Positions 31,441 to 43,589 of a DNA stretch of 64,000 nt are shown one piece after another. A program made the position numbers and the translations under genes. Each line of letters begins with the position of its first letter. The stretch's first letter is position 1. The notes under the pieces were generated by a model. The model saw only the letters and a list, made by a program, of their open reading frames with translations. It searched no databases and was not told where the DNA came from. The stretch comes from a bacterium (lineage in GTDB: Bacteria > UBA8248): assembly GCA_965204535.1 (NCBI GenBank), contig CBDBEV010000001.1:2624001-2688000 (forward strand), written 5' to 3'.

Positions 31441-32310
31441 TTATGACACAACTGGAAGTGGTTGACCGTCCCCGCCGCCGTTCGCCTTCTCTTTCACGCG
31501 GCGCGCCTCGTCCATGGGGCACAGGGTGATGCAGGTCGCGCACATGTGCGGCGCGTTCTCGGTGAAGGCCATCATGCGTCCGGCGAGCTGGAGTTCGGGG
31601 TAGCCGTAGCGAGTCTTGAACACGTCGACGGCCTTCTCCGCCGAGACTTTTTGGGGGTACATCACCATGCACTTGTAGTGGTCCACCGCCCCGTCTCCGG
31701 GCAGCGCATGCGCCGGACAGGGCTTGATGCACTTGTAGCCGCACTGCACGCAGAATTCGGGCACCACGCCGTATCGTTTGGGCGGGTCGGCTTCGAGCGG
31801 GGCCGACGTGATGACGGCCCCCAGCCGTATGCGCGAGCCGTATTCGGCGGTGATGAGGTTGTTGTTCACGCCGATTTCGCCCATGCCTGCGTTCACCGCC
31901 GCGAGCCTCAAGTCAAAAGAACCCTGCATGAACACCTCGGGTTCCGCGCCTTCGCGCAGAATGCGGAGCGAGGGGATGTCCCGTCCGGCAGGCGTGGGCA
32001 GCGCCATGTGTCCCTCATCCTCGAGCCAGAGCGCCAAGCGGTATGAGAGCTTGTTGATCCAGGCTTCGTGCCCGTAATAGCCGAATTCGAGATAACCCAC
32101 CGAAGGCCGGGGCGTGGCGTTGCCGAAGGGCATCCGGCGCGCGAAGACGACGACGCTTCTGGCGCCCTTCACCAGGTCTTGGGGCTTGCAGCCGGGGAGC
32201 GCTTTCTCGTAGCCCTCGCACGAGGAAATGTTTACGAGGTCCGCGCCGAATTCACGGGCCTGCGCCTTGACGCCGCCTGAGGAAATCGCGGTGCTTGAGC
32301 CGTTTTCCAT
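31441..32310 (-). CDS. QueG/reductive-dehalogenase-like 2x[4Fe-4S] protein (paralogue 2)
   Basis: FGADLV, AAVNAGMGEIG.NNNLIT.EYGSRIRLGAVIT, CVQCGYKCIKPCP, CATCITLCP. Confidence 0.85.
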   Translation of the reverse strand: MENGSSTAISSGGVKAQAREFGADLVNISSCEGYEKALPGCKPQDLVKGARSVVVFARRMPFGNATPRPSVGYLEFGYYGHEAWINKLSYRLALWLEDEGHMALPTPAGRDIPSLRILREGAEPEVFMQGSFDLRLAAVNAGMGEIGVNNNLITAEYGSRIRLGAVITSAPLEADPPKRYGVVPEFCVQCGYKCIKPCPAHALPGDGAVDHYKCMVMYPQKVSAEKAVDVFKTRYGYPELQLAGRMMAFTENAPHMCATCITLCPMDEARRVKEKANGGGDGQPLPVVS

Positions 32311-32311
32311 C

Positions 32312-33214
32312 CTAGGGATTCTCCAGCAGGGCCGGGTCGATGACCTTGAGCGCGTCTTCATCGGTCCAGGATTCGCGGTGAAAGGGATTATCCGCGAAAT
32401 CGCGGCCCTGATCCATCGGGCAGAGCGCGATGCAGGTGCTGCATGGGTGCGGCGGGCTATCGGTGTAGGAGAGGCCCTTGGCCGCCATGATCATGGGCTT
32501 GCCCCGGAACAGTTCCTTGAAATGGGTGAGGGCCTTTTCCGGCGCGACCAGATCCGGCCGGATGACCATGCAGCGGTAGTGATCCACGGTGCCGTCGCCG
32601 GGCAGCGCGTTCGCGGGGCAGGCTTCCACGCAGCGAAAGCCGCATTCACGGCAGAACTCGGGTACCTCGCCGAACTGGTTGGGCGGGTCGGGCTCGAGCT
32701 TCGCCTCGGTGAACACCGCGCCCAGGCGGACGCGGGAGCCGTACTCCTGCGTAATGAGGCAGTTGTTGGCGCCGATTTCGCCGAGACCGGCCTTGACCGC
32801 CGCGAGACGCAAATCGAAGGAGCCGTGGAGGAAGACCCTGGGTTCGGCGCCTTCTTCTTCCACGCGGAAGTTCGTGATGTCGCGCCCGCACGGGGTGGCG
32901 CCCGAGAGCCAGCCCGCGTCTTCGAGATAAAGCGAGAGGCGATAGCAGGCTTCGTTCAGGAAATTCTCGGGGATGTATTCGCCGAATTCCATCGCGCCGA
33001 TGCTCGGGTACGGCGTGGCCGCGGCGAAGGGGACGCGCTTGGCCACCACGATCACGCTGTTCGCCATGTTGAAGAGGTCTCTGGGTCGGCGGCCCGGCTG
33101 CGCTTCCGCGAAATCCTCCGCCGATGCGACCCCCGCGAGGTCGGCGCCCAGCTCACGGGCGAGACGCTTTACCTCTTGCGTATCAATGGGTTTTCGGGCC
33201 TCGGTTCGGTCCAT
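32312..33214 (-). CDS. QueG/reductive-dehalogenase-like 2x[4Fe-4S] protein (paralogue 1)
   Basis: LGADLAGVA, AAVKAGLGEIG..NCLIT.EYGSRVRLGAVFT, CRECGFRCVEACP, CSTCIALCP. Confidence 0.85.
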   Translation of the reverse strand: MDRTEARKPIDTQEVKRLARELGADLAGVASAEDFAEAQPGRRPRDLFNMANSVIVVAKRVPFAAATPYPSIGAMEFGEYIPENFLNEACYRLSLYLEDAGWLSGATPCGRDITNFRVEEEGAEPRVFLHGSFDLRLAAVKAGLGEIGANNCLITQEYGSRVRLGAVFTEAKLEPDPPNQFGEVPEFCRECGFRCVEACPANALPGDGTVDHYRCMVIRPDLVAPEKALTHFKELFRGKPMIMAAKGLSYTDSPPHPCSTCIALCPMDQGRDFADNPFHRESWTDEDALKVIDPALLENP

Positions 33215-33482
33215 GGGAACCCTCGGGTTTCCGGTGTCGGCTCCGTTCTGTGACCTGGAACCGCTTGCCCTCTCGCGGCATTCGCTTAAGGCCAAAGTCT
33301 TCATGCGAGAGGATGGATTGAATCTATCACAGCGGCGCGATGAGGCAAAATCGCATCATGCGGGCCGTTCGATGAGCTTTTGTGCGGAATGCGCGCATCT
33401 CCCCGCATTTGCGGTAATAGAGAGACTCAAGGACCATGGCAGAATCCCCCTGCGCTTGGGTGTCCCGGGCGCCATATCCCCG

Positions 33483-38229: not shown

Positions 38230-39633
38230 TCACCGGTCGCCGCGCGCCACCAGGTCCACGCCGTCCGTACCGATGATCTCACACGCGATGATCTCCCCCG
38301 GCTCGGCCTCCGTCTCGTGCAGGAAAACCTCGCCGTCCACTTCCGGGGCCTGGAGCCGCGTCCGCCCGCGCAGGAGACCCTCTCCCGTCAGGCTCTCGAC
38401 GAGCACCTGCGTCTTCTGGCCGATGAGCGCTTCACTCTCCTCGGCCATGATGCGCTCCTGAAGCGCGAGCAGGCGCGCCATGCGCTCGCTCGCGAGTTCG
38501 GCGGGCACCTGATCGGGCAGCCGCGCCGCGATGGAGCGGTCCTCGGGCGAGAAGACGAAGCCGCCCAGCCGCGCGAAGCGCGTCTCCTCGACGAAGTCGA
38601 GCAGGCGTTCGAAATCCGCATCCGTCTCCCCCGGAAAGCCGACGAGCATGGTGGTCCTGAGCGCGCAGCCGGGCACTTTTTCCTTGATGCGCGATACGAG
38701 TTCGCGCGTTCCTTCTTCATCTATGCCCCGCCGCATGGCGTCGAGCACCGGCGTGGCGACGTGCTGGAGCGGCATGTCGATGTACTCGCACACCTTGGGC
38801 AATTCGCGGTAGGCGTCGAGCAGTTCGTCCGTCACCCCGCGCGGGTAGTTGTAGAGCACGCGGATCCACTCGAGGCCATCCACGTCGTTCAACTCCTCCA
38901 GCAGCCTTGCGAGGGAGAAGCCGAGTCCCAAGTCGACGCCGTAGCTCGTTATCTCCTGCGCGAGCAGGTTCACTTCCCGAACGCCCGCCTCGGCCAGCGC
39001 GCCCGCTTCCTCCACCACCAGTTCGAGCGGGCGCGAGCGGAACCTGCCGCGGAACCTGGGGATCACGCAGAAGGTGCAGGGGCGTGAGCAGCCCTCGGCG
39101 ACTTTGAGATACGCGCTCGGCCCCGGCTCCGCGAGGATGCGCGGCAGCCTCCTGCCGTAGTCCATCAGGGTGTCCGAGAACGCCTCGCGCGCGCCGCCGC
39201 GCTCCCCGCCCAGCAGCGCGGGCAACCGGTCGTACTCGCGCGTCCCGATGAACAGGTCCACCTCGGGCAGGCCCTGGGCGAGTTCCCCCCGGTAGCGCTC
39301 GGCCAGGCAGCCGGCCACGACGAGGGTTTCGAGACCGCCCGCAACTTTAAGCTGGGCGACTTCCAGAATCGTGTCGATGGATTCTCGCTTCGCGTCCTCG
39401 ATGAAGCCGCACGTGTTCACGATGGCGACCTGCGCGTCTTCTGCGTCGCTCACGAGCCTGTAGCCCGCGCCCGCGAGGGCGGCGAGCATGATCTCCGAAT
39501 CCACCGTGTTCTTGGCGCAGCCGAGCGATATGAGTGCGGCGCCGGGCGCTTCGGGCCCCAGGGGAACAGGCGCGTCGCGCCGCACGAGGGGCATCTCGGA
39601 GATGGGCTGGATTTGCAGGAGGTTTTCGCTCAT
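38230..39633 (-). CDS. rimO: Ribosomal protein S12 methylthiotransferase
   Basis: SLGCAKNTVDSE, VNTCGFIEDAKRESI, AYLKVAEGCSRPCTFC, YIDMPLQH, QAPEVDG (TRAM domain). Confidence 0.96.
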   Translation of the reverse strand: MSENLLQIQPISEMPLVRRDAPVPLGPEAPGAALISLGCAKNTVDSEIMLAALAGAGYRLVSDAEDAQVAIVNTCGFIEDAKRESIDTILEVAQLKVAGGLETLVVAGCLAERYRGELAQGLPEVDLFIGTREYDRLPALLGGERGGAREAFSDTLMDYGRRLPRILAEPGPSAYLKVAEGCSRPCTFCVIPRFRGRFRSRPLELVVEEAGALAEAGVREVNLLAQEITSYGVDLGLGFSLARLLEELNDVDGLEWIRVLYNYPRGVTDELLDAYRELPKVCEYIDMPLQHVATPVLDAMRRGIDEEGTRELVSRIKEKVPGCALRTTMLVGFPGETDADFERLLDFVEETRFARLGGFVFSPEDRSIAARLPDQVPAELASERMARLLALQERIMAEESEALIGQKTQVLVESLTGEGLLRGRTRLQAPEVDGEVFLHETEAEPGEIIACEIIGTDGVDLVARGDR

Positions 39634-40955
39634 CGAGCGGCCCCCGCCTTCGAACCTTTGGGATCGATGTGCCATTCCTCCCTGGGCCGGTTGAAATAGC
39701 GGATGGCCACGCCGGGCAGTTCCTCCCGGTAGACCTCCAGCATACGCGCCATGCCCATCGCCTCGCCCATATCGCCGACCTCGGGCAGGGTGTCGAGATA
39801 GAGCGCGGGGTCGATGCAGAGGTTTTTCATCTGGATCACGTGCAGGCCCGTTCGCGCCGCGAGCGCGAGGGTCGCCTCGACCTCGGCTTCCAGGTCCGTG
39901 ACGCCGGGGAAGACCAGGTAGTTGATCTGCGTGTAAAGCCCTGCGTCGACGGCGGCCTTCACGCAGTCCTCTAAGTCGGAGAAATCATACGTCTCGGGCC
40001 GGTAATAGGCGTGGTGCCACTCGGGCGTCGTGCTGTTCGTGCTGATTCGGATGCTCTCCAGGCCCGCATGGGCCAGGCGCTCCATCCATTCGGGCCGGCT
40101 GCCGTTCGTGTTGAGGTGGAGGGTGCCGCGCTCCGTCCGCTCGCGGATGATTCGGCAGGCGCGCTCGATGACGCCCGCCTGGAGAAGCGGCTCGCCTTCG
40201 CAGCCCTGGCCGAAACTCGCGACGGCCATTTCGGCGCCTTCGAGGTGGGGGAGGGCGATCTCGCAAAGCTCTTCCGGCGTCGGGACGATCTCGATGCGCC
40301 GGTGGCTCGCCGGGAAAAGGTCGTCCGTCTGGAGCGATATGCACCCCCGGCAGTCCGCGTTGCAGAGCGGGGCGATGGGCAGGCCCATCTCCCAGCGGCG
40401 GGCGAAGAAGTTTTTCGCGGCGAAGCAGTGGAACTCCCGCGCGCAGCGCGCGAGGTGGGGGATCATTCGGTTTTCGGGGTGGGCGTCGCGCATCCGCTCG
40501 ATCCGCCCCGATAATCCTGTGTCGTCGTATTCCTCGGGTTCCCAGCGCGGGCAGTCGTCCACGCGTAGGGCGGCGCAGACGAATTCTTCTGTCTCTTCAT
40601 CGAAGCCGAGAGCGGTGTAGGCCCAAAGGGGTAGCACCGCCGCGCCGGGGTCTCTCTCGGCGAAGGGGAGCAGGGTGCGCATCCAGCCGGGGGAGGGAAA
40701 TGTGCAGGCGGCCTGCAACGGGGTTGGCCCGTCGCCCCAGTCGGCTTCTTCCACACTCACGAGCGCGTCCTCTTCCGGGTCGCCGCCGACGGGAACGCTG
40801 TCCGGGATGGTGAAGAACTTGCTCCCCGCCGGCAGGGGGGAGAGTTCAGAGGGATCGGGCGCCACGGGTTCGCTCCCCTGTGCGCCCACCATCTCGAACT
40901 CGGGGTGTTCGAACAGGTTGCCCTCGGCGTCCGCGACCACCATCAATGGCGACAT
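39630..40955 (-). CDS. Uncharacterised radical SAM protein
   Basis: CNADCRGC (CxxxCxxC), SFGQGCEGEPL, LNTNGS, NYLVFPGVTD; 4-bp overlap with rimO. Confidence 0.9.
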   Translation of the reverse strand: MSPLMVVADAEGNLFEHPEFEMVGAQGSEPVAPDPSELSPLPAGSKFFTIPDSVPVGGDPEEDALVSVEEADWGDGPTPLQAACTFPSPGWMRTLLPFAERDPGAAVLPLWAYTALGFDEETEEFVCAALRVDDCPRWEPEEYDDTGLSGRIERMRDAHPENRMIPHLARCAREFHCFAAKNFFARRWEMGLPIAPLCNADCRGCISLQTDDLFPASHRRIEIVPTPEELCEIALPHLEGAEMAVASFGQGCEGEPLLQAGVIERACRIIRERTERGTLHLNTNGSRPEWMERLAHAGLESIRISTNSTTPEWHHAYYRPETYDFSDLEDCVKAAVDAGLYTQINYLVFPGVTDLEAEVEATLALAARTGLHVIQMKNLCIDPALYLDTLPEVGDMGEAMGMARMLEVYREELPGVAIRYFNRPREEWHIDPKGSKAGAAR

Positions 40956-41169
40956 GGGTTTCCGTCTCCTGAAAAGAGGAGGGCTTATGAGAGATTCCGC
41001 CTCCTCGCACCGAGGCCATAACCTAGCAGAACTCGCCCACCCCCCGCCAGCTTGCGGCCCTTGCCAGCGGCCCCTGGTTTCGCAATACTTGGAGCTTCTC
41101 TCCATTCATGGGATGGGGATTTCTTTTTCAAAGACGAACCGCGATCCCGCAAGACGGAGGTGCGCCCAC

Positions 41170-42000
41170 GTGAGTCCCGAAGAACAACTTTCCCGAGTCG
41201 CCCTGGTGAAATCGGAAACCGAGCGCCTCTCGGCCTACTGGCGCGGTTTTTCGGACGCGCGCTGGGAGATGGAGACGTTCTGCCCCGGCTGGCAGGCGCA
41301 GCACGCCGTCTCCCATCTGGCGACGGGGGCGGATTTTTACACGAACTCGATCCGCCGGGCGCTGGAGGGACTGCCGCCCGAACCGCCCTACGGCAGCAAC
41401 GTGAAGGAGTTCTTCGCCATCCGCGCCGCCAAGGGCGAGGAACTCATGGCTTTGCCCCGCGATGAGATGATGGATGCGTTCGACGCCTCGGCCGCCGGGG
41501 TGAACGATGCGCTTGCGGAGGTCACGGCGGAAGACATCGCCAAGCTCGGCTTTCACCCCCGGGGCCTGACGCGGCTGGACGCCTGGATCGGGCTGAGACT
41601 CGTCGAACTCGTGGCGCACGACTGGGACGTCCGCTACGGGGAAGACGCGGAAGCATGCGTCTCCGAAAACGCCCTGGAGGGCATCATGAGCTTCCTCCCC
41701 GCGAGCCAGAACCGCCTGTTCGGCGTCCGCGAGAACCCGCCCTTCGACGGGCGCTTTCTGTTCCGCTCGAAAACGCCGGACCGGGAGTGGACGATCACCG
41801 TCGCCGGTGAGAAGGCGGAGGAATCCGCCCACACGTCCGGTTCGCACGACGCCGTCATCACCGCGGACGGCGAGGCGCATTTTCTTTTGCTCTACGGGCG
41901 CGCGAAGCGCGGCGCCATGGAGGACGCGGGCCGCCTCGAAGTCGAGGGGAACGCGGAGCTGGCGAACGAACTTTTATGCGTTTTATATACGAATTATTGA
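41170..42000 (+). CDS. MDMPI/TIGR03083-like DinB-superfamily protein with SCP2-like C-terminus
   Basis: TFCPGW...AVSHL, ELVAHDWDV (metal-ligand His/Asp), GRLEVEGN. Confidence 0.85.
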   Translation: MSPEEQLSRVALVKSETERLSAYWRGFSDARWEMETFCPGWQAQHAVSHLATGADFYTNSIRRALEGLPPEPPYGSNVKEFFAIRAAKGEELMALPRDEMMDAFDASAAGVNDALAEVTAEDIAKLGFHPRGLTRLDAWIGLRLVELVAHDWDVRYGEDAEACVSENALEGIMSFLPASQNRLFGVRENPPFDGRFLFRSKTPDREWTITVAGEKAEESAHTSGSHDAVITADGEAHFLLLYGRAKRGAMEDAGRLEVEGNAELANELLCVLYTNY

Positions 42001-42021
42001 TCCCAAAGGAGCAAACCCTTC

Positions 42022-42915
42022 ATGTCACCGATCACGAAAGTAGACGGGTACGCCTATTATCCGGGCAGCAGGACGCGCATCGACGCCATGCGCTCCGCCG
42101 ATCCGGCCAAAACGCCGTGGACGCCGCTGCCGAAGCCGCTCTCGGAGTGCAAGGTCACGCTCGTCTCCACGGCGGGCATCTTCATGAAAGGTGACGTTTC
42201 CTTCGATTACGAGCGCGAGTGGCGCGAGCCGCACTGGGGGGACCCCACCCACCGCGAGATTCCCAGAACGGCCGCCCAGGATGACTGTGAATACTCGCAC
42301 CTGCACATCAACACCGAGTACCTGAAACAGGACAGGAACGTGTCGTTTCCGGTGGACATTTTTCTGGACTACGAGCGCGAGGGGAAGATCGGCGCGCTCG
42401 CCGACACGCTCTACTCCACCATGGGCTATACGCCCAACTTCCATCCCCTGCTGAAGAAGACGGCTCCCCTGATGGCCGAAAAGATGCACGCGGAGGGTGT
42501 GGACGCGGCGTTTCTCATCCCCGTCTGACCGCTCTGCATGCGGTCCGTGAGCCTGCTGCAGAGAAGACTGGAAGAGTTGGGAATCGCCACCGTCTCGATA
42601 TGCAACCAGCCGGACGTGTCCGAGAAGGTCTGTGTGCCGAGGGCGGTCTTCATCCAGTATCCCTTCGGGCGCATGCTGGGGGACGTGGGCGACAGAGCCG
42701 GCCAGCGCGCGGTGTGCGACGACGTGTGCGCGCATCTGGAAGCCGCAGATGGCCCGAACGCCTACCGCCACCTCACGCACGAGTGGCCCGAACCGCCCGA
42801 AGAGACCCAGTGGAAGCCCCTCACGCCCGCGCCCATGCACGTCCTGCGCAACAACGGCACGGCGCCCAAGGGCCTCGCGCACTACCAGGACGACGAGCGG
42901 CCCGATTTGACGTAA
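42022..42915 (+). CDS. PrdB/GrdB-like selenoprotein; Sec at TGA 42526-42528 (297 aa, joins two track ORFs)
   Basis: PWTPLPKPLSECKVTLVSTAG, DRNVSFP, EGVDAAFLIPV-U-PLC.RSVSL..R.LEE.GIATV, VPRAV...YPFG; the two ORFs are in the same frame. Confidence 0.9.
42532..42563 (+). promoter_or_regulatory. Candidate bacterial SECIS element
   Basis: CTCTGCA-TGCGGTC-CGT-GAGCCTGC-TGCAGAG hairpin directly after UGA; small G-containing apical loop about 17 nt from the UGA. Confidence 0.65.
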
Positions 42916-42948
42916 GCGCCTCGTCTCGGTTCCGGCGTGGGCGAAATT

Positions 42949-43556
42949 GTAGGGACAGGTCGCGACCTGTCCCTGCGGGAGGACAATCACGGGGGGATGT
43001 CCCTACGACGTTACAGGTCGACCGAGCCGGTGACCTGTAGGGGCCGCATACATGCGGCCCATTCTCTTAGGCCATCAAACCACGGGTCGTATATATGTGT
43101 GGGGCGGCCCCGAGGAGGGGCCGCCACCTACAAACGGGTTCACGATCAAAACAACATGCGGGCGGACACACGGGTCCGCCCTGCGGTAATCCTCCCTCCC
43201 CGGTTGGGGTTCACCCGTAGGGACAACCCCCCGTGGTTGTCCTTTGTCAGGGTGTCGGACAGGCACGGGGGCCTGTCCCTACGGGGCGGTGCCTCCTCGG
43301 TCGGTTGGATTGCCCTCTTACCTGCATGAAAAGCAACCCCCCCTACCCCCCCTTGACAGGGGGGTATAAAAAGGCGACGCCCGCCGCCGGGTTGAGAGGG
43401 GTTTTGCTTTTTCTTGCCCCCCTGACAAGGGGGGGTAGGGGGGGTTGGTTTTGTGCCCTGAGGAGGGGGGACTTTTTCAACAACCCCATATGCGACCCCA
43501 GCAAACGGGTTCACAATCAAAACGACACACGGGCGGACACACGGGTCCGCCCCTAC
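42949..43556. repeat. Large mosaic REP/BIME-like cluster (at least six families)
   Basis: Family A 42949; GTAGGGGCCGCATACATGCGGCCC 43037; GGGCGGACACACGGGTCCGCCC x2 (43160, 43531); GTAGGGACAACCCCCCGTGGTTGTCC 43217; C-rich/G-rich inverted pair 43337-43444. Confidence 0.9.
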
Positions 43557-43589
43557 GGCGAACTCTCCCTCTCCCCGGTCGAGTTCGAC

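Follow-up and report, generated by a model that had tools for sequence, protein, structure and literature searches.

A partnerless PrdB-like selenoprotein gene in a UBA8248 bacterium and its syntenic MDMPI-like neighbour

In D-proline reductase, PrdB's selenocysteine attacks proline at its alpha carbon while the pyruvoyl group of PrdA holds this substrate, and a U151C variant of PrdB is inactive (PMC11229817). Cleavage of the selenoether by a thiolate leaves a Se-S bond, in steps that a review calls chemically unusual (PMC10298544). The betaine and fluoroacetate systems GrdH/GrdI and FarB/FarE are described as employing partner variants without a pyruvoyl group; an alpha partner, even if a non-pyruvoyl one, always accompanies the B subunit of the known reductases (PMC10838667). 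Selenoproteins named 'PrdB' were catalogued outside the clostridia between 2005 and 2007 (PMC1088965, PMC1794560, PMC1976440). The Sargasso Sea set contains 42 such genes, and 'PrdB' ranks third in abundance there among the selenoprotein families that were already known (PMC1088965); five were described in the Olavius delta-1 symbiont (PMC1976440) and single genes in Anaeromyxobacter and Geobacter (PMC1794560). A 2026 review lists D-proline reductase with a UxxC motif (PMC13188914). Neither missing partners nor a substrate is discussed in the consulted text of the non-clostridial surveys.

Here, we analysed a window of 64,000 nucleotides (assembly GCA_965204535.1, contig CBDBEV010000001.1, positions 2,624,001 to 2,688,000), in which a PrdB-like gene follows an MDMPI-like gene on the same strand. 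The features of this locus are:

41061..41089, + strand: weak sigma-70-like match (9/12) 5' of the MDMPI-like gene, a consensus match only
41170..42000, + strand: MDMPI-like gene of the DinB superfamily (TIGR03083), assigned by HMM scores and a fold match to 2NSF
42006..42011, + strand: AAGGAG, a ribosome-binding-like site 5' of the selenoprotein ATG, read from the sequence
42022..42915, + strand: PrdB-like selenoprotein gene, 297 aa with U169-x-x-C172, assigned by PF07355 and TIGR04483 scores and locus comparison
42526..42528, + strand: in-frame TGA, putative selenocysteine codon (codon 169), from the TGA/Cys column and the sel genes
42532..42563, + strand: SECIS-like hairpin within the coding sequence, from fold, covariation and silent-site conservation

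The open reading frames at 42022-42528 and 42538-42915 form a single frame of 297 codons that is split by TGA alone and reads IPV-U169-PLC172, as the preliminary description of this DNA had proposed. It had also expected Cys or Sec at residue 169 of homologues. Among 80 related loci of our genome collection, which overlap with a 30-genome set, this column contained TGA in 75 loci spanning several phyla, Cys in four (reading PGCPLC or PACPLC) and a frameshift before the column in one, while TAA or TAG were never seen. Taking the best locus of each genome, including the source genome, TGA was found in 30/30. A contig from run X4, which may be the source sample, spans 41000-42975 with 0 differences; given this identity and the 30 retained TGA codons, an assembly error does not account for the TGA. 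For 150 family representatives drawn from a 50%-cluster library, the protein stops at the Sec column in 52 (judged from protein records only, not from the DNA behind them) and continues across it in 90, with CxxC in 54 of these; 8 were not classed. The source genome, which is 95.7% complete, encodes tRNA-Sec (selC), selA, selB and selD, all above cut-off, and its selD itself carries an in-frame TGA. Judged from these sequence comparisons, UGA at codon 169 almost certainly encodes selenocysteine.

We then examined the hairpin that follows the TGA. The stem CTCTGCA/TGCAGAG is indeed the predicted fold; its folding energy lies within chance (z -0.90; 34/200 shuffles were equally stable), so that support for the hairpin is comparative, coming from covariation and silent sites. 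Pair +9/+36 is standard in 21/23 orthologues (8 C-G, 11 U-A, 2 U-G), and its mutual information ranks 8th among 3240 variable third-position pairs of 22 congeneric orthologues. The switch between C-G (8) and U-A (11) requires a minimum of three label changes along the tree. In 22 orthologues, conservation at silent sites is maximal at codons 167-178, where 8/9 invariant-residue codons are identical compared to 33/182 overall. The apical helix (+16-21/+25-30) is 89% paired over 41 family-wide sequences and includes two compensated cells, while two of its six pairs are broken in the window gene. Judged by its sequence, the hairpin of the window gene depends on its lower stem; this stem is clade-specific, as only 63% of it is paired over the same 41 family-wide sequences. 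Thus, the stem of the earlier claim stood, while its G-containing apical loop needs qualification: the loop reads CCGUGA, with its G outside the first two places.

The selenoprotein belongs to the PrdB/GrdB family as originally assigned, with a PF07355 score of 42.8 bits against a cut-off of 22; across about 220 residues it is 31% identical to an annotated PrdB whose gene is linked to prdA. U/CxxC falls after the Pfam domain. Protein and PrdB have the same core, with UxxC in the same column and G73, D74, H93, D104, N106, P110, G135, U/C169, C172, P206, R207 and G220 in common; D74, R78, D104, N106 and R207 are 88-99% conserved among the 150 representatives. In contrast to PrdB, the window protein reaches only 114.7 bits with the equivalog model TIGR04483 (cut-off 300), carries an ERE(W/R)RE insert as well as a C-terminal tail of 40 residues, and is one of three paralogues per genome. 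Its likeness to GrdB, GrdF, GrdH and FarB is confined to a homologous C-terminal catalytic half with a Sec nucleophile. Those proteins are of ~435 aa, are encoded with an alpha subunit and contain an N-terminal domain that is absent here, where the N-terminal ~210 positions of PF07355 are lacking. The GrdB, GrdF and GrdH models gave 49-55 bits, all below their cut-offs of 65-800; for TIGR01918 the score was 52.6 bits against 65.45, the match being limited to profile positions 220-396.

A predicted model of the selenoprotein (pLDDT 85.7) displays an alpha/beta Rossmann-like fold in which U169 is placed between strand 162-166 and the start of helix 172-185. A PDB sequence search returned no real match for this protein or its MDMPI-like neighbour, and Foldseek retrieved nothing at E <= 0.001 for the selenoprotein model. 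A wide structural search yielded common alpha/beta Rossmann folds of LacI and SDR type with middling Z-scores of up to 8.7, and no thioredoxin-fold protein was among the 50 matches listed. Fused forms of 532-2000 aa were absent among 7991 scored candidates, which is weak evidence. About 15 representatives of 380-420 aa (P0092, P0115, P0119, P0131, P0142-P0144, P0148, P0152, P0167, P0170, P0171, P0176, P0194 and P0195) have in common a C-terminal extension of ~150 aa with a D-x3-YY-x-EAA-like motif and no Pfam match there. Two other representatives have long N-terminal extensions, that of P0081 being a helix-turn-helix domain.

The two further paralogues in the source genome are 65% and 38% identical to the window protein, and both carry U-x-x-C. 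They adjoin MFS transporters and, from a reading of the sequence without a family match, a putative cupin-like gene. All three are kept across the genus, which suggests that they are substrate variants. At locus L009 (G000:C2:2196737-2203420), two MFS transporter genes precede the second paralogue, and genes resembling nitrile-hydratase alpha and, in part, beta are found nearby. This paralogue is frameshifted in G004, G008 and G022 (L101, L104 and L100), reflecting real decay or assembly error. In G032, the intact PrdB-like gene has a degraded second copy immediately upstream (L098:4700-6873).

Database records of the family are largely truncated: the 75 matches are mostly the N-terminal half only, of 166-169 aa. 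The closest named records come from MAGs labelled Nitrospinota. BSepDB files one of the closest records under GTDB UBA8248, includes three UBA8248 genomes with 48-54 genes among its ten most selenoprotein-rich organisms, and may already list these genes (PMC13326102). The gene had been called hidden and easily missed, which is accurate for gene callers, given the half-length records, and not for the field, where 'PrdB' has been listed since 2005 (PMC1088965). The survey genes resemble ours as Sec-containing UxxC homologues of PrdB, often in several copies; likening them by description and not by sequence, we infer that they fall into the same subfamily as the window gene. The latter is thus an ordinary, mis-annotated member of a long-catalogued family and not a new two-gene system.

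With the family established, we asked for a pyruvoyl partner. Neither prdA nor prdH lies beside the window gene, and the best PrdA (TIGR04480) hit in the 95.7% complete genome reached 26 bits against a cut-off of 700, on a grdE gene. This is the sole PF09338 gene (grdE-type) of the genome, located at C2:73129-74289 and 2.6 Mb away from the window gene. It is part of a cluster (C2:69891-76211) that comprises grdA(U), grdE, its own grdB(U) and, from a sequence reading, a grdC-like gene; the full-length GrdB encoded there scores 412 bits with TIGR01918 at a cut-off of 65.45 bits. A PF09338 match is absent in 10/41 other family genomes, and all ten carry the PrdB-like gene, including the single-contig genomes G001 (99% complete), G007 (100%) and G048 (98%). 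The gene is therefore retained independently of a pyruvoyl proprotein. The absence of a cognate partner, asserted for the window before, thus extends to the genome: the only candidate elsewhere is grouped with a grdB and a grdA of its own, and the gene persists in relatives devoid of grdE.

The distant cluster (L004, L005, L125) is glycine/sarcosine-reductase-like, and no equivalog cut-off is reached. Its GrdB reads U-G-T-G-T-R-S and thereby lacks both cysteines of the usual UxxCxxC, a loss as reported for fluoroacetate FarB. From the sequence, grdE and grdB are separated by a low-GC insert of ~1.8 kb with a putative PIN-like gene.

Turning to the neighbour, the MDMPI-like gene ends 21 bp before the selenoprotein ATG, and its family assignment agrees with the earlier one. 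The protein scores above the cut-offs of PF11716 (MDMPI_N), PF12867 (DinB_2), PF02036 (SCP2) and TIGR03083 (71.7 bits, cut-off 50). Its model matches PDB entry 2NSF, a mycothiol-dependent maleylpyruvate isomerase, as a whole protein over both domains (TM 0.63/0.71, E 5e-8). The SCP2-like tail described previously is hence present by its SCP2 match but is nothing special, since this match over both domains identifies it as the usual MDMPI C-terminal domain. H49, E146 and H150, which we take to be the metal ligands, are invariant in 6 orthologues. Likeness to the isomerase thus covers the two-domain fold and these residues, while identity to 2NSF is only 15% and the genome contains no thiol-pathway gene above cut-off among the three searched (mshC 285.8 bits versus 485, gshB 82 versus 299, bshC no match). 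Two more MDMPI-like paralogues are found elsewhere in the source genome.

Judging from the 21 bp gap and the weak promoter match, co-transcription of the two genes is plausible in this genus. RNA runs X1-X3 contain the stretch only at small shares (0.05-0.07), and contigs of relatives cover the selenoprotein gene at 42150-42764 across the TGA (X3), 42593-42887 (X1) and 42787-42957 (X2); none lies over the MDMPI gene or the junction, and such contigs cannot show transcript limits. An unassigned radical SAM gene (39630-41105, - strand) and rimO (38230-39675, - strand) diverge from the MDMPI gene, and this block is kept in 5/6 genera. The spacer after the selenoprotein gene (42937-43560) is a mosaic of palindromic repeats with up to ~330 genome copies, and its length varies widely among congeners. 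Further away (31441-33304, - strand), a tandem pair of paralogous 4Fe-4S proteins is encoded next to a CoA-transferase III gene; their matches to reductive dehalogenase (TIGR02486, 56-61 bits versus 160) and QueG are weak.

Next, we compared the linkage of the two genes across genomes. The pair is adjacent in 22/23 genomes of the genus, source included, the remaining one being at a contig edge. Adjacency persists in four other genera (g17, 3/4 genomes; g20, 2/2; g21, 1/1; g22, 2/4) down to an MDMPI identity of 42%, and in three genera the genes are co-oriented at 10-45 bp. Thus, the MDMPI gene precedes the selenoprotein gene in 4/5 of the other genera that have both. In g2 the pair is unlinked in 5/5 genomes, and in the four of these whose flanks are long enough, a Lon-like gene is found next to the selenoprotein gene or one gene away; g18 has the selenoprotein and no MDMPI orthologue. 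Three loci are interrupted, by an opposite-strand gene (L066) or by gaps of 0.9-1.6 kb (0.9 kb in L061/L062). Two g22 genomes (G051 and G053) miss both genes and keep selA. As a control for synteny, 40 regions were taken from g22, g20, g17 and g2, with one genome representing each genus, and inspected for neighbours whose homologues both occur in G000, using best and not reciprocal hits. Same-strand neighbours stayed within 1.8 kb in 53/69, 47/51, 33/40 and 50/63 cases, respectively (183/223 or 82% in total), and opposite-strand neighbours in 41/59. The MDMPI linkage is therefore not above background, as 4/5 genera equals the rate of ordinary same-strand neighbours.

The 11 proteins with an upstream MDMPI gene group in a single clade (support 90/86) of a 47-protein tree, and the pairing is therefore one event. 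It is absent from the two paralogues in the source genome and from distant homologues; no MDMPI match was seen near 54 other loci examined, some with short flanks, and 21/22 long homologues scanned have no DinB domain. Neighbours at 33 loci (115 ORFs from crude ORF calls, grouped at clade level only and not scanned against Pfam) differ by clade, among them MDMPI, MFS transporters, an SDR pair and others, and none is common across clades. A literature search, with supplements and most subscription papers outside its scope, brought up no article that describes a PrdB-DinB/MDMPI pairing or names a substrate for partnerless PrdB homologues, and the words 'DinB' and 'MDMPI' do not occur in the consulted text of the 2026 review (PMC13188914).

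Taken together, we favour a PrdB-like Sec/Cys reductase that probably acts on a small, already-activated substrate and employs neither a pyruvoyl partner nor the MDMPI protein. That it is a stand-alone Sec/Cys reductase is likely; a carbon-leaving-group chemistry, drawn by analogy to its relatives, is a more tentative proposal. A substrate that needs no activation is the simplest assumption for a B-type protein without an alpha partner. Under such a mechanism, the selenolate of Sec169 would attack a carbon with a good leaving group, namely a halide or an onium (ammonium or sulfonium) centre, as has been proposed for GrdH/GrdI and FarB/FarE with their non-pyruvoyl partners. Attack of Cys172 on the selenium would then set the reduced product free, and the remaining Se-S bond would be re-reduced by a dithiol of thioredoxin type. 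The three paralogues would be variants for different substrates. As known B subunits always have an alpha partner, a different, unlinked one may by analogy also serve the window protein. Also counting against our favoured explanation are the partly broken apical SECIS helix and the MDMPI gene, with its short co-oriented spacing in three genera and the joint absence of both genes from G051 and G053.

Among the alternatives, a general thiol-redox enzyme, whose UxxC would reduce disulfides, mixed disulfides, sulfoxides or peroxides in stress defence or protein repair, deserves most weight, although we consider it unlikely. A U/CxxC motif where a helix begins suits simple reduction of disulfides or sulfoxides just as well, the Sargasso survey places PrdB among UxxC thiol-redox selenoproteins (PMC1088965), and no catabolic neighbour is conserved. 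However, the best, if middling, structural matches are of Rossmann/LacI type without a thioredoxin fold among those 50 listed, D74, H93, D104, N106 and R207 in common with PrdB suggest a retained small-molecule pocket, and the upkeep of three paralogues across the genus suggests substrate variants. The preliminary description had instead envisaged a two-gene selenol/thiol module for reductive cleavage or detoxification. In such a module, the MDMPI-like metalloenzyme and the selenoprotein would act in sequence on one substrate, for instance by thiol conjugation and then reductive cleavage. The close same-strand arrangement, its persistence in the genus and four others, and the two g22 genomes without either gene speak for such a module, which we nevertheless judge improbable: adjacency is at background rate and of single origin, the pair is broken in g2 and in L066, the two paralogues lack this neighbour, nearly all long family members scanned lack a DinB domain, the divergent radical SAM neighbour is kept equally often (5/6 genera), and co-loss of neighbours is possible by one deletion. 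Thus, the MDMPI gene is a syntenic neighbour with no sign of a dedicated partnership, and the module is not supported.

Of slightly lower probability still is a bolder reading, in which partnerless PrdB-like proteins would form a distinct widespread class that cleaves carbon-onium or carbon-halogen bonds without a pyruvoyl subunit (e.g. in betaines, sulfonium compounds or halogenated acids), with the MDMPI-like neighbour handling the product or a thiol adduct in this lineage. It is very unlikely that the window protein is a true B subunit served in trans by the distant grdE/grdA/grdC cluster or by a prdA. Such a cluster exists, but a full-length B subunit of its own is encoded there, the N-terminal part of PF07355 is missing from the window protein, ten family genomes hold the gene without a PF09338 match, and PrdA stays below cut-off. 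The chance that the TGA is a genuine stop in a split gene or pseudogene is negligible: a hairpin no more stable than shuffles and an ATG 9 bp past the TGA agree with it, but are outweighed by TGA and never TAA/TAG at this column across phyla with occasional Cys, by silent-site conservation and covariation directly 3' of the TGA, and by the complete Sec machinery.

Returning to the partnerless Sec/Cys reductase that we favour, near-complete genomes that have no pyruvoyl partner retain the gene, and its branch therefore cannot be ordinary proline reductase. As the gene is routinely truncated in databases, its correction matters for annotation. The MDMPI pairing is no reliable clue to the substrate, and the PrdB-like gene offers a clean test case for the function of the partnerless PrdB branch. 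Its substrate, once found, would give a function to a common marine selenoenzyme.
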